This document shows positions 27,419 to 55,066 of a DNA stretch of 64,000 nucleotides, piece by piece. Position 1 is the stretch's first letter. Each line of letters starts with the position of its first letter. The position numbers and the translations under genes are program-made. The stretch is taken from positions 64,001 through 128,000 of the IMG/VR virus record IMGVR_UViG_3300047552_001889; one strand, 5' to 3'. The notes under the pieces were generated by a model that saw nothing but the letters and a program-made list of their open reading frames with translations, searched no databases and was not told the DNA's origin. Origin of the DNA: a virus. Its lineage: Duplodnaviria; Heunggongvirae; Uroviricota; Caudoviricetes.

Positions 27419-27447
27419 TGTAACATTTTTCTATTACATCCGTATAA
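27419..27447 (+). promoter_or_regulatory. ECF-type promoter TGTAAC-N16-CGTATAA
   Basis: Exact motif; precedes non-coding structured segment. Confidence 0.8.
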
Positions 27448-27452
27448 ATACT

Positions 27453-27566
27453 GAATAAGAGCTTGAGGTATCACTACAAAGCACAATTACCCGATTGGTC
27501 TGGCGAGGTATCTTATAGAATGCACAATTACCCACAAGGTCAGCCATAAGCTCTTATTCTTTTTTT
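27453..27566 (+). ncRNA. candidate small RNA: 12-bp closing stem around two 40-41 nt repeat units, ending in a U-tract
   Basis: GAATAAGAGCTT (27453-64) / AAGCTCTTATTC (27548-59) + T run; GAGGTATC-N8/9-GCACAATTACCC-N4-GGTC twice; no ORF. Confidence 0.6.
27465..27541 (+). repeat. two bipartite direct repeats
   Basis: GAGGTATC at 27465 and 27505; GCACAATTACCC at 27481 and 27522; GGTC at 27497 and 27538. Confidence 0.9.
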
Positions 27567-29543: not shown

Positions 29544-29885
29544 CATTTAATAAACTTTATTCTATCTATGGAAAACGAAAAACTGCTAGAGAAAGTCAAA
29601 GACTTCAAACATAAATTAACAAGACTTCAAGACTATGAAGGGGCTTGTATCTTTAGGGACCTTGAAAGAACCTTGATGATTGATTCAGATTCTGAAGATA
29701 ATATTGAGTCATTCCTAGAAACGGTTGTATCACTTTCAAATAGAAAGAAAAAGTCTGACGAACTTTTATCAAAATCCTTAGATGCTATGCAGATGGTTGG
29801 TAAAAGAGATTTAACATCTACAGAAATTGCAGCATTAAAGAAAGAGATAAAATCTCATCTTAACATTTAATAAACTTTATTCTAT
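29544..29885 (+). repeat. 22-bp exact direct repeat pair flanking ORF 29568-29870
   Basis: CATTTAATAAACTTTATTCTAT at 29544-29565 and 29864-29885. Confidence 0.9.
29568..29870 (+). CDS. small protein with UVR (UvrB/C)-like motif
   Basis: KLTRLQDYEGACIFRDLE resembles edYE.Aa.lRD. Confidence 0.5.
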   Translation: MENEKLLEKVKDFKHKLTRLQDYEGACIFRDLERTLMIDSDSEDNIESFLETVVSLSNRKKKSDELLSKSLDAMQMVGKRDLTSTEIAALKKEIKSHLNI

Positions 29886-50963: not shown

Positions 50964-51322
50964 TGAAAAAATTAATTGAAATAACAGATGAAGATGCTCA
51001 GAAAGTGGTTGATACAATCCATCTTCTTACTCAAAACTCCATTATAGGACGCTTTGGAATTCATGAATTATCATTTGAAGATTCATTTAGAAAATATGGC
51101 GATGCATATATTGATTTTGAGTGCGCAAGCATTGATAATGTGAGTGATGGCTATTTTTCTACCTTTTCTAAGTTTAGAATTAGATTTCGCCATCAATCAG
51201 TTTGGTTTGAAGAAATGTCAATGAATGGCGAACCATCAACATACAACAAAAACCACTTCTTTGGATACCTTAAACTTCAAGAACTTGGATATGAATTACC
51301 AAAAAAACCTCAATGGACATGA
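50963..51322 (+). CDS. hypothetical protein
   Basis: Packed ORF. Confidence 0.75.
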   Translation: MKKLIEITDEDAQKVVDTIHLLTQNSIIGRFGIHELSFEDSFRKYGDAYIDFECASIDNVSDGYFSTFSKFRIRFRHQSVWFEEMSMNGEPSTYNKNHFFGYLKLQELGYELPKKPQWT

Positions 51323-51924
51323 TATATATTGAAAAAATAAAAATACAAGATAAACAGGACTATCCTGGCTCAGAAGTCTTAAAAAAAGGATTTGAAATTG
51401 AGTGCAGCGATGTTAATTTGTTTGTCGGAAATCAGGGTTGTGGTAAAAGTACGATGTTAACTTTGCTTCAAAAAAATCATCCAGGACTTGAAATAATCAT
51501 TTCAGAATATACAAAAAAGAATGGTGTTAATTCATTCTTCTTTAACTCTGAGCTTGATAACCCAAGAGTAAAAGACCCTGAGATGTTCACTACTCCAGGT
51601 GGAGAAAGTATTGGAATTGGAATCGGTGGTGCTCTTGCTAGTAGGTTTATGTCTCATGGAGAGGTGTTGGAATCATTCGTTATTAACCCTCTGAGAGAAG
51701 CTAAGAATTGCGTAATTATTTTAGACGAGCCAGAGTCTGGCTTATCAATCACAAACCAATTCAGATTAATACAAGCCATTAAGGAGTCTGTAAAAAACGG
51801 TTGTCAAGTATTTATCGCAACACATTGCTATCCACTTATTCAGGAGTTTGATGTAATTTCTCTTGAACACTATGAGAAAATGAGTGGAGCAGAATTTATC
51901 CAAAAAACCTTTGTTCAAGATTAA
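51313..51924 (+). CDS. ABC/AAA_21-type ATPase
   Basis: GNQGCGKS, SHGE signature, ILDEPESGLS, ATH. Confidence 0.9.
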   Translation: MDMIYIEKIKIQDKQDYPGSEVLKKGFEIECSDVNLFVGNQGCGKSTMLTLLQKNHPGLEIIISEYTKKNGVNSFFFNSELDNPRVKDPEMFTTPGGESIGIGIGGALASRFMSHGEVLESFVINPLREAKNCVIILDEPESGLSITNQFRLIQAIKESVKNGCQVFIATHCYPLIQEFDVISLEHYEKMSGAEFIQKTFVQD

Positions 51925-52103
51925 TGGATTGGATTTTATTCATATTTCAAAAGGGTAATAAGCATTATCTTGTTCCAGCTGGCTCTCAAGATGAAGCTTG
52001 GAATTTACTTTCTAGGAGACAGAGTATGTCTCTTGAAAGATGCAAGAAGGAATATTCATTCGTTTGCTTTATGAATGAGAATAGTAGCATTGTAAAGTTG
52101 TAA
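51924..52103 (+). CDS. small hypothetical protein (59 aa)
   Basis: Own translation; TAATG overlap with upstream stop. Confidence 0.6.
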   Translation: MDWILFIFQKGNKHYLVPAGSQDEAWNLLSRRQSMSLERCKKEYSFVCFMNENSSIVKL

Positions 52104-52104
52104 C

Positions 52105-52398
52105 ATGGCGTTCATAATTTCTATTTTTTTATTGTGGTTGGTATTCAGCTTTATGGTTGATATGGAATCGGAAGAACATGTTCATTCTGGACCAACAACT
52201 TTATCGACAAATGTTTTGGTAATTCCTAGTTTAAATGGGGTCAAGTGTGAAAAATGTGGAAATGATGATATAAACCCTTATAGAGATTTAGACTCATACA
52301 CATTTGATATTATTTGTAACAGTTGCAACTCAACTATCTGGGAAAATCCTGAGAGAGAGGAGCGAATGCAGCAAATAAATGATATGCTAGATTCTTGA
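52105..52398 (+). CDS. membrane-anchored Zn-ribbon protein
   Basis: N-terminal TM; CEKC...CNSC. Confidence 0.7.
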   Translation: MAFIISIFLLWLVFSFMVDMESEEHVHSGPTTLSTNVLVIPSLNGVKCEKCGNDDINPYRDLDSYTFDIICNSCNSTIWENPEREERMQQINDMLDS

Positions 52399-52805
52399 TG
52401 AAACATAGATTATTTCATAAAAGGAAAAGGAAAAAGTCAAGATATATCTTCCACCAGGAGGATATAAACAAGATTGTGTTTTCTTTGCCAAAGATGTCAA
52501 TCTTAATAGGAGAATTAGTACCACTTAGAAAATCTGGAAGTGACTTCGTTGGTAGATGTCCATTCTGCAGAGAAATGACGCAAAATGATAGACACTTTAG
52601 GGTATCGGATAGAAAAGGAGTATATAAGTGCTTTGAGTGTGGAGTTGGTGGTTCTGGCTCTATTTCTTTTTTGATGCGCTGGTTCGACTCATCATTTGGA
52701 GATATTATTTTATTTGTTAACAAAAGGTTTTTGAATCTTGACGTAAAGCCTAAAGATACAAGGCGGATGAAGGGGTCTAGTATAGATGATAACTTGCCAT
52801 TCTGA
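52395..52805 (+). CDS. stand-alone CHC2 zinc-finger (primase zinc-binding domain-like) protein
   Basis: LRKSGSDFVGRCPFC...F.V...KGVYKCFECGVGG..ISFLM; no TOPRIM domain. Confidence 0.8.
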   Translation: MMKHRLFHKRKRKKSRYIFHQEDINKIVFSLPKMSILIGELVPLRKSGSDFVGRCPFCREMTQNDRHFRVSDRKGVYKCFECGVGGSGSISFLMRWFDSSFGDIILFVNKRFLNLDVKPKDTRRMKGSSIDDNLPF

Positions 52806-52829
52806 GGTAACGTTGGTAGTCACAAGAAA

Positions 52830-52863
52830 AAAACCAGGTGCCCTCAAAAAACCACCTGGTTTT
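52830..52863 (+). terminator. intrinsic terminator-like hairpin
   Basis: AAAACCAGGTG-12nt-CACCTGGTTTT. Confidence 0.7.
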
Positions 52864-52891
52864 GTAACATAAACTATTTTGTAACGTATAA
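52863..52891 (+). promoter_or_regulatory. ECF-type promoter TGTAAC-N16-CGTATAA
   Basis: Exact motif abutting terminator. Confidence 0.8.
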
Positions 52892-52917
52892 CTATTTAAC
52901 CAATTAATTTGTTACTC

Positions 52918-53820
52918 ATGAGAGTTATAGACAAGGGATATGATAAACTTCTATGGTCGAATTTTGAACTATGTTCTTCGACCTTTCTGGAATTAAAGAC
53001 TCTTGCCAAGAGTTGGTATGGAGACCTTGACCTTAGCAAGTTTGATGACAGATACCTTTATAATGCTGAGAGAGAAAAGAATGAACTTATTACAATGAAG
53101 CAATCTGGTCTAACCAGCAACTACTTTTTCGCATACCGTGACCAAGATGGTAAATATTACCTTATGGACGGATTCAATCGCTTATTTACCGATTACGGAG
53201 ACCTTGGAGACATTGACTTTCCAGTTTACATCAAAGTAATTACTGATGAACTTGAGGACTGGAGATTAATGCACATTATGTTCCGATTGAATATGTGGAA
53301 GCTACAAGGAAGAAGTCAGAATTCATTCAAACCAGATGATTTCTTCGACAGAGGATTCAGACTTTTTATGTTCACAAAGTTTGGTGTTGATATTTGGTCA
53401 AATGCCAACGACAGACATGGTAAATTTAACTTTGAAGAGCGACCAAGAGAACAGGATGACTTCCATGCAATCCATAAGTATTTTAGAAATGAGTACGAGA
53501 GTTGTGCAGATTTCCCTTATAAACTTGGTGAAATGAGCGTTCTATTTAGCAGAGAAAAGATTGTTGATGACCTTAGACAAATCACTAAAATAAACGAATA
53601 CAAAGGGCAATTTAAAAACTTTAGATTCTTCATTGATGGATTCTATATGTTTTTGTCTGGAAGACGTGTTAGAGGTGATATGGGTGACTACAAGTTTGAT
53701 GACTTTTTGAAGATGCTTGAGGATGATGAAAAATTCTTTAAGAAGCTTCAAGGAATGTCTGGTACCGATGTGACTAGACAAAATGTATATAAGTGGTACC
53801 AATCCACTCTGCAAAAGTAA
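52918..53820 (+). CDS. ParB/DUF262-like (DGxxR) protein
   Basis: YYLMDGFNRL then MFRLN resembles DGQQR...F.RLN; start moved to ATG 52918. Confidence 0.5.
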   Translation: MRVIDKGYDKLLWSNFELCSSTFLELKTLAKSWYGDLDLSKFDDRYLYNAEREKNELITMKQSGLTSNYFFAYRDQDGKYYLMDGFNRLFTDYGDLGDIDFPVYIKVITDELEDWRLMHIMFRLNMWKLQGRSQNSFKPDDFFDRGFRLFMFTKFGVDIWSNANDRHGKFNFEERPREQDDFHAIHKYFRNEYESCADFPYKLGEMSVLFSREKIVDDLRQITKINEYKGQFKNFRFFIDGFYMFLSGRRVRGDMGDYKFDDFLKMLEDDEKFFKKLQGMSGTDVTRQNVYKWYQSTLQK

Positions 53821-53834
53821 TTTTTATGTTTATT

Positions 53835-53863
53835 TGTAACATTTTTATATAGTTTACGTATAA
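53835..53863 (+). promoter_or_regulatory. ECF-type promoter TGTAAC-N16-CGTATAA
   Basis: Exact motif preceding GC-rich non-coding segment. Confidence 0.8.
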
Positions 53864-53868
53864 CAAAG

Positions 53869-53993
53869 CTCAAGCAGGTGTTAAGGCGCTCCAGGTGTGT
53901 CAAGACTGCATCCCGAAAGGGTATACAAACCTTGGTCCGATGCTGGAATTATACGTGGCAAGGTGAGAGCAATCCTCATGCTTGCCTTTTTTT
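53869..53993 (+). ncRNA. candidate structured ncRNA or attenuator leader (about 120 nt)
   Basis: GC-rich; TCCAG/CTGGA stem, CCC-GAAA-GGG hairpin, terminal GGCAAG-GTGAG-agcaatc-CTCAT-g-CTTGCC + T7; 5' CAAGCA can pair with TGCTTG. Confidence 0.6.
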
Positions 53994-54023
53994 ATTGAGA
54001 ACAAACAACAATCAACAATAGAG

Positions 54024-54197
54024 ATGATAACAGTTTTTTACGCAGCAGCATGTATATTCTTTTCTTATGTACTCGTGAAGTCTTCTGTAGAGCTATGGAG
54101 AGTTGAGGGCAACTTGCTTGATAAATTATATCTAGTGATTTCTTCTGGTACAGCTCTTGCATTTTCATTCTTTGCACTATTTGAAACATTGTTTTAG
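54024..54197 (+). CDS. small two-TM protein (57 aa)
   Basis: Start moved to ATG 54024. Confidence 0.55.
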   Translation: MITVFYAAACIFFSYVLVKSSVELWRVEGNLLDKLYLVISSGTALAFSFFALFETLF

Positions 54198-54210
54198 AAT
54201 TTTCGTATAA
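54182..54210 (+). promoter_or_regulatory. ECF-type promoter TGAAAC-N16-CGTATAA
   Basis: Exact motif upstream of ATG 54230. Confidence 0.8.
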
Positions 54211-54229
54211 GATATTATAAACCATCATT

Positions 54230-55066
54230 ATGAATAAGAAGGAAAAAATGATTGAGGAGTTTCTTGCTGAGCCAATTAAGGCTGGGGATGTCGTTACTGT
54301 AAGAGGTCTTGGCACTCAAGATAAGAAAGCATTTGCAAATTCTACCAAAGTTATTGAAGTTCATGATGATGAGTCAATTACCATCAACGAGTATCACTAT
54401 CCATCTCCTAAAAGAATTCAAAAAGGAGACTATAGAAAAAATACAGACAGAATTGGGGCAGACCCATTCCCAGAAAAGTCATGGTATGCTAGTCTTAGAA
54501 TGATTATGTTTGACCTATACTCAATAACCCATGCTTGTGGAATGCAAAAGCTAGATAAGGAGTATGACTTTGGAACGAAGAACACCTACATAGTCAATGA
54601 ACTGAACTGGAATCCATTCTTCATTGACAAGGATGGAAATGAAATTGTATATCAGAGAGAATTATGTTGGACCACAAAGCAGAAGCAGCTTCTTATCGAG
54701 TCCATCTATAACGACATTGAAATAGGTAAGATTGTCATAAGAAGACGCTCATATGACTGGGTTAAGAATAGATGCTTAAGTGGTAAGGAGGCATTCTTTA
54801 AGGACATCGTTGACGGAAAGCAAAGACTTAACGCAATCTTGGGATTCATCAACGGAGAGTTCAAGGACCTTCATGGAAACAAGTGGAATGACCTATCTGA
54901 CCATGCTCAGCATAAGTTCTTCAAATTTTCATCTGTTGGATATGGTGAGATTGGTGAGAATGCAACTGATGAAGATGTTAAGTCAGTATTTCTTAACATT
55001 AACTTTGCTGGAGTTAAAATGTCTAAGGAACACATAGACTTCGTAAAGTCAATTCAAATCAAGTAA
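54230..55066 (+). CDS. DUF262 (GmrSD N-terminal/ParB-like) domain protein
   Basis: YQRELCW...QKQLLIESI...IG.IV, IVDGKQRLNAI, FLNIN.AG. Confidence 0.85.
   Translation: MNKKEKMIEEFLAEPIKAGDVVTVRGLGTQDKKAFANSTKVIEVHDDESITINEYHYPSPKRIQKGDYRKNTDRIGADPFPEKSWYASLRMIMFDLYSITHACGMQKLDKEYDFGTKNTYIVNELNWNPFFIDKDGNEIVYQRELCWTTKQKQLLIESIYNDIEIGKIVIRRRSYDWVKNRCLSGKEAFFKDIVDGKQRLNAILGFINGEFKDLHGNKWNDLSDHAQHKFFKFSSVGYGEIGENATDEDVKSVFLNINFAGVKMSKEHIDFVKSIQIK

Follow-up and report, generated by a model that had tools for sequence, protein, structure and literature searches.

Between a phage promoter of the ECF type and the start of a small membrane-protein ORF lies a GC-rich stretch of about 125 nt, and the question raised by this locus is whether that stretch specifies an RNA with a role of its own, serves as a regulatory leader for the ORF, or matters only as DNA. 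The window, by which we mean the whole stretch of DNA that was analyzed (64,000 nt), corresponds to bases 64001-128000 of a 140,950-bp IMG/VR virus record that is 63% complete and has a GC content of 35.7%. A sequence-only reading of the window had proposed that the segment is either an independent small RNA, possibly a tRNA- or Y-RNA-like decoy, or a switch controlling read-through into the membrane gene.

Promoter, terminator and neighboring genes

The two promoter boxes are TGTAAC at 53835-40 and CGTATAA at 53857-63, with 16 nt separating TGTAAC from CGT. The window contains 22 occurrences of CGTATAA (2.7 expected), nearly all of its + strand copies are preceded at a fixed spacing by TG[TA]AAC, and the composite pattern TG[TA]AACA-N15-CGTATAA is found at ~30 sites over the 141-kb record, of which 26 are on the + strand. 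The promoter at 53835-63 is real, beyond what chance would produce, and the GC content rises locally to 45-47% against 36% for the genome, so that the starting point of the sequence-only reading, a GC-rich island placed at the expected +1 of an ECF promoter, is borne out. Most sites of this kind across the phage sit 10-40 nt 5' of a start codon; a long non-coding stretch follows the promoter at three of them, namely 53835-63, the tmRNA region and 27452-27566, and the presence of an SmpB gene in the phage record was confirmed. The promoter belongs to a phage-wide class that is probably read by a phage sigma factor; the phage promoter classes are likely recognized by the products of two ORFs that contain sigma-70 region 2 and are located outside the window (G000:C1:23399-23599(-) and 29603-29782(+), about 301 and 215 aa). 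With its AAC-containing -35 element, CGT -10 element and rigid 16-nt spacer, the promoter resembles the flavobacterial SM6 and B. subtilis SigW-type ECF promoters, and the SM6 promoter of F. psychrophilum also drives a putative regulatory RNA, Rfp11 (PMC9723704). This likeness covers the promoter alone and not the RNA, and the promoter class is here phage-wide.

At the opposite end of the unit, the terminal hairpin GGCAAG-GTGAG-(AGCAATC)-CTCAT-G-CTTGCC spans positions 53957-86 and runs into T7 at 53987-93, a configuration that a simple terminator scan did not pick up because of the bulged G. No promoter motif was found between 53994 and 54023, that is, ahead of the small membrane ORF. The product of this ORF has 17 invariant residues in a protein alignment of six loci, including the motif W-x-x-EGNL-x-DK, and its conservation in six loci identifies the ORF as a real gene. 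No relatives of this protein were found in IMG/VR or otherwise outside a small clade, and an exhaustive protein search returned low-complexity noise. Farther away, PADLOC matches a 203-aa ABC/OLD-type ATPase (51313-51924) to AriA, GajA, PtuA and NsnB, and the DUF262 protein to NsnA (Menshen); the two genes may form a phage-borne defense-like or competition module. In the related loci L075 and L076 they lie within ~0.6 kb of each other.

Table 1. Features of the locus in window coordinates, and identity between the window and the two other RNA-bearing loci (L077, L112).
Feature	Position	Strand	Description	Identity, window vs L077/L112
ECF/SigW-type phage promoter	53835..53863	+	-35 TGTAAC(A), -10 CGTATAA; assigned by motif class; boxes kept in L077 and L112	73-77%
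Predicted ~125-nt non-coding RNA	53869..53993	+	conserved block 53871-53992; +1 (about 53869-53871) inferred from promoter geometry	91-93% (118-121/130)
Candidate long irregular helix	53891..53935	+	CCAGGU.GUG / CAC-side ACAAACC(U)UGG, enclosing the GAAA hairpin; all cells pair in 3 copies	
GNRA (GAAA) hairpin	53910..53924	+	sole internal helix with covariation support	
Intrinsic terminator	53957..53993	+	11-bp stem with one bulged G, 7-nt loop AGCAAUC, then U7; hairpin dG -14.2 kcal/mol	
Post-terminator spacer				60%
Conserved 57-aa ORF	54024..54197	+	two hydrophobic segments; 30 nt after the U-tract; six-locus protein alignment	57-58%
Next ECF-type promoter	54182..54210	+	overlaps the 3' end of the small ORF, drives the DUF262 gene; conserved in L077, L112, L111 and L078	
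DUF262 / GmrSD_N (ParB-like) gene	54230..55066	+	Pfam PF03235 at 6.6e-14; syntenic anchor	75%

Conservation and phylogenetic range of the RNA block

Homologs of the RNA were located via homologs of the DUF262 gene (73-86% identity), which led to loci L075-L078, L111 and L112. Full copies of the RNA beyond the window are present in two of these metagenome contigs (L077:66-191 and L112:2142-2267), and a further locus, L071, is identical to the window. The window, L077 and L112 share the same layout, consisting of the promoter, the RNA, the terminator, a membrane ORF of 54-57 codons, a second promoter and the DUF262 gene. When identity is followed in 15-nt steps, near-identity begins at CAAGCAGG (53871), approximately at the expected +1 just past the -10 box, and ends within the T-tract; both boxes of the RNA promoter are conserved in L077 and L112 and the spacer is variable. 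Even if a background of 75% is assumed, the binomial P for the identity of the RNA is ~4e-6. In the alignments, the sequence between the approximate +1 and the U-tract is far more strongly constrained than both neighboring genes and than the spacers within the promoter and after the terminator. The terminator hairpin is 100% identical in the three copies, loop included, and conservation is not confined to it, as the 90 nt upstream are conserved too and include a compensatory change in the GAAA hairpin. About 10 positions differ among the copies, four of them in this hairpin, where all changes keep or improve pairing, and a 1-nt indel at 53932/33 means that no conserved ORF spans the block. The sequence-only reading of the segment as a discrete unit of transcription, begun at one promoter and closed by a dedicated terminator, is supported by the block conservation and the compensatory change, which point to an RNA that is selected and non-coding. 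The L112 copy combines window-type with L077-type variants in a mosaic. The high identity of the RNA could stem in part from recent exchange between phages and not from purifying selection.

The remaining loci differ in what they retain. In L111 both the promoter and the RNA are absent, and the small ORF directly follows a 119-aa gene; in L075 and L076 a deletion has left only the final ~32 nt of the RNA, joined to a decayed 59-aa ORF; L078 starts inside the small ORF. Two independent deletions have thus removed the RNA and retained the ORF, from which it follows that the RNA is a separable accessory module and not an obligatory leader. Inspection of the fusion (L075:1870-2045, and also L076) revealed that the 59-aa ORF carries a premature stop, that the tail of this ORF now runs, across the deletion, into the inner half of the terminator hairpin, and that a C-to-T change in the remaining 3' arm lets the shortened hairpin re-form. 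The upstream flank varies as well. In L112 (1933-2140) the RNA promoter comes directly after the 59-aa ORF, whereas three extra genes lie between them in the window (51924-53834), encoding a 97-aa ORF, a 136-aa protein with a CHC2 primase zinc ribbon and a 303-aa ParB-like DGFNR protein with a promoter of its own. This three-gene difference between the window and L112 is an insertion/deletion polymorphism of the island. The 303-aa protein (52909-53820), which bears a ParB-like DGFNRL motif, has no match in Pfam, PHROG or PADLOC and 65 metagenomic homologs at 40-62% identity, and therefore represents an unannotated phage protein family; since the next gene starts within ~45 nt in the three closest contexts of these homologs, the RNA is not linked to the 303-aa gene.

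Beyond these loci, the search for further copies covered phage, metagenome and host sequences. Neither the RNA nor the two genes that flank it are present in the closest whole-genome relatives of the phage (ligase 81% identical), and this region therefore constitutes an accessory island. BLAST with the RNA against 35 related phage records, found via their DNA ligase, gave no match, and a covariance model built from the three copies returned only the self-match among 29 related phage records, including ten complete huge phages. No RNA accompanies the DUF262 homologs at <=66% identity (L107-L110, L079-L093). Neither the RNA alone nor the surrounding 1.4 kb matched any of 50,697 GenBank phages by blastn, and exact-pattern scans with three RNA segments in IMG/VR, JGI metagenomes and GTDB genomes yielded either nothing or 13 chance 18-mers that nhmmer rejected. 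To look for mimicry of a host RNA, such as a CRISPR repeat in the case of an RNA anti-CRISPR, the RNA was compared by BLAST with 401 sampled Bacteroidota genomes, a sample from which the true host is probably missing, and this produced chance matches of 13-20 nt to unrelated genes and repeats; the recurrent ones, of 13-17 nt, correspond to conserved host genes or to a host repeat. The latter is a multi-copy element (L217-L219; G150, G178) that starts ...TTCCAGGTGTGTCAAGTCTCGCTCC..., is found three times within 1.2 kb in G178 and shares 15 nt with the RNA by chance. One segment, GAAAGGGTATACAAAC, may resemble a Cas13b repeat, a relationship that we do not claim. On this comparative basis, the block is a putative new RNA family with three members, restricted to a narrow phage clade.

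Predicted folding and comparison with known RNA families

All of the pairings proposed in the sequence-only reading, i.e. the upstream stems, the GAAA hairpin, the terminal hairpin with its T7 and the CAAGCA/TGCTTG pairing, were located in the sequence at the positions given for them. The hairpin CCC-GAAA-GGG occupies 53912-21 in the window. In both L077 and L112 the pair C53913-G53920 is replaced by U-A, a compensatory change, and the substitutions U53911 to G and A53923 to U make the stem grow to 5 bp. The covariation is not significant (164/500 shuffles), because there are only three distinct copies and two of them are close. The candidate helix between 53891 and 53935 accommodates the substitution of C53930 by U as a G-U pair, its bulged U is deleted in L077 and L112, and the resulting fold is the minimum free energy (MFE) structure of L077; a single one-sided change argues weakly for this helix. 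It competes with the stem formed by TCCAG (53890-94) and CTGGA (53943-47), which had been proposed in the sequence-only reading and which is invariant in all three copies. Invariance also applies to every pair of the alternative CAAGCA (53871-76)/TGCTTG (53979-84) interaction, and the fold that contains it lies less than 1 kcal/mol from the terminator fold (-31.9 vs -32.8). The MFE structure of the window, with the helices GCAUC/GAUGC and AGGGU/ACCUU, was rejected, since two of the three copies (L077 and L112) disrupt it. Overall fold stability is no better than that of shuffled sequences (z = +0.57 for the window and +0.22 for L077). Noted post hoc, the motif AGGUG occurs three times in the RNA (53877-81, 53893-97 and 53961-65), where the local base composition would predict ~0.16 occurrences, and two of the three belong to a CAGGUGU direct repeat.

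Searches of Rfam 15 at the gathering threshold returned 0 matches for the whole window. When the limit was set at E<=10, a 451-nt query gave chance snoRNA matches alone (16-17 bits vs gathering scores of 39-60), and a 141-nt query likewise gave chance matches only, the best being a terminator-driven match to SdsR/RyeB (16 bits vs 38, E=1.1). ARAGORN detected 0 tRNA or tmRNA genes in the window. The proposal of a tRNA- or Y-RNA-like decoy fails on these grounds, as the Rfam matches at E<=10 include no tRNA, tmRNA or Y-RNA family, and also because the loop AGCAAUC is unlike a T-loop. The terminal hairpin does have the 5-bp/7-nt dimensions of a T-arm, as had been remarked, but its loop lacks U54-U55 and carries A-G at those positions. 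A tRNA-like acceptor was also considered and rejected, since the alternative pairing comprises 6 bp instead of 7 and the 3' end reads CC followed by U7 instead of CCA.

A probable phage small RNA and the alternative readings

The comparative data make it somewhat probable that the phage encodes a small non-coding RNA of ~125 nt, which would end at the intrinsic terminator and reside in the 5'UTR of the membrane ORF. The bulk of the transcripts would stop at the terminator, giving a stable small RNA that accumulates and that would act in trans, either pairing with a conserved partner from the host or the phage or sequestering it. A minority of transcripts would pass the terminator, and no other source of mRNA is visible for the 57-aa membrane ORF. 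Since the single-stranded stretches and the terminator loop hardly vary, recognition would seem to be specific to the sequence and not a matter of folding alone. A comparable arrangement has been described in the virulent Pseudomonas phages 14-1, LUZ19, LUZ24, YuA, PAK_P3 and phiKZ, in which 29 candidate small RNAs that reside in 5'UTRs and arise from premature termination were mapped by ONT-cappable-seq and northern blots (PMC10914365). Those RNAs share with the present case a phage promoter, a short terminated transcript ahead of an ORF, expression of this ORF via read-through and conservation at the level of a phage group. They differ in showing no similarity of sequence or structure and in being mapped experimentally, whereas the RNA described here is known from comparative sequence alone, is separable from its ORF, is preceded by an ECF-type promoter and belongs to a phage with hosts in the Bacteroidota. 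Classical examples of phage small RNAs running from promoter to terminator are lambda OOP, P22 sar, P1/P7 C4, P4 CI and T4 RNAs C and D, which are likewise short dedicated units of ~70-140 nt ending in an intrinsic terminator. For OOP, sar and C4, however, a phage mRNA is known to which the RNA is antisense or with which it pairs, whereas no conserved complementarity to phage transcripts was found here, the antisense matches to the RNA within the phage record being <=12 nt long. A type I toxin-antitoxin pair was rejected on similar grounds: the predicted RNA-ORF duplex reaches -55 kcal/mol in the window and -39/-40 kcal/mol, the background level, in L077 and L112, and this lack of conservation argues against such a pair; in addition, L111 has the ORF without the RNA.

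The same layout could also reflect a cis-acting leader or attenuator, in which the RNA sets or switches read-through of the terminator into the 57-aa ORF, the small RNA being a by-product; the signal might be a ligand, a protein of phage or host origin, or a modification of RNA polymerase as with the HK022 put RNA. We consider this possible but rather unlikely. It would account for the fact that in all three RNA-bearing loci the small ORF begins 23-30 nt past the U-tract and lacks a separate promoter, so that read-through of the terminator is needed for its transcription wherever the RNA is present; it would also give a role to the near-isoenergetic fold that pairs 53871-76 with 53979-84, and premature termination in phage 5'UTRs has been interpreted as regulation elsewhere too (PMC10914365). 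Such an antiterminator, however, would have to pair with the 3' arm of the hairpin, which is made last and whose partner is immediately adjacent, a kinetically unfavorable arrangement, and the sole upstream complement of the 5' arm of the terminator (ACCUUG, 53929-34) is altered in L077 and L112. Nor did any riboswitch, T-box or leader family match, even at E<=10, and a search of the record, which is 63% complete, turned up no NusG/LoaP-like antiterminator. Attenuators and riboswitches whose expression platform consists of a terminator and an antiterminator do resemble this locus in having a structured leader with an intrinsic terminator, followed by an ORF that lacks a promoter of its own; they differ from it in that no known aptamer and no covarying antiterminator are present here and in that the ORF is leaderless in a close relative, L111, only a stump of the RNA being left in L075. 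Furthermore, the supposed leader is conserved far better than the gene it would regulate. The read-through switch of the sequence-only reading is accordingly only weakly indicated: the promoterless ORF speaks for it, and the lack of a known aptamer, the absence of antiterminator covariation, the disruption in the relatives of the lowest-energy stems of the window and the leaderless ORF of L111 speak against it.

That the block has no function at the RNA level, and is instead a recently exchanged DNA segment, for instance a small mobile element or a stretch prone to recombination, or a DNA-level site for protein binding whose promoter and terminator insulate cassettes, appears improbable to us. 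Presence/absence polymorphism with sharp junctions among close relatives, the mosaic nature of the L112 copy, the replacement of the upstream neighbor (the 303-aa gene in the window, the 59-aa ORF in L112) and the absence of the accessory island from the closest whole-genome relatives all fit with DNA exchange. Exchange without an RNA function is nonetheless unlikely because the conserved block respects the boundaries of the transcript: high identity is bounded by about +1 and the U-tract, and the abutting spacers have diverged like the rest of the locus. Moreover, the four differences that fall within a single hairpin, out of ~10 in total, all preserve or improve pairing, and no flanking direct repeats were seen around the block when the locus sequences were inspected by eye. 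Coding potential offers the least probable of the explanations, one to which we give very little credence. Short ORFs do exist on both strands, among them a 47-aa GTG ORF (53878-54021) and a 33-aa ORF (53897-53998), and the acceptor/T-arm-like dimensions of the terminal hairpin might suggest a decayed gene or tRNA remnant; but the indel at 53932/33 shifts the frame of every ORF that spans it, the substitutions compensate within the hairpin instead of falling on third codon positions, and the ORFs are GTG-initiated without a visible initiation context. A tRNA remnant is at odds with the ARAGORN and Rfam results, which include no tRNA or tmRNA, and a decayed remnant would not be the best-conserved element of its locus.

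If the block does encode a trans-acting small RNA, its surroundings allow a more specific and, in our estimate, still improbable proposal, namely that it is a takeover or counter-defense RNA of a kind new for Bacteroidota phages. Such an RNA might be a decoy that titrates a conserved RNA-binding factor or nuclease of the host by means of invariant single-stranded tracts, among them the three AGGUG motifs and the AGCAAUC loop, or it might modify RNA polymerase in the manner of put. The RNA sits in an accessory island beside ATPase and DUF262 genes that resemble components of defense systems (AriA/GajA/NsnB-like and NsnA-like, respectively). To our knowledge, no small RNA has been characterized for Bacteroidota phages, whose hosts are without Hfq- and CsrA-based RNA regulation, and the small RNAs of virulent and huge phages have barely been charted outside Pseudomonas and enterobacterial models; the 63% complete record yielded no CsrA gene. 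The locus provides a compact test case in this respect, combining a defined promoter class and a terminator, ~120 nt of constrained sequence and natural deletion variants that separate the RNA from the gene, and the partner of the RNA, if identified, would show how such phages use RNA in takeover or in phage-phage competition.

A second unit is present elsewhere in the window, at 27419-27566. It comprises an ECF promoter, ~112 nt of non-coding sequence with two GCACAATTACCC repeats, and a 12-bp inverted repeat followed by T7, the next ORF starting ~12 nt past the T-tract. There is no sequence similarity between this unit and the RNA at 53869-53993, and the layout of the two is the same.
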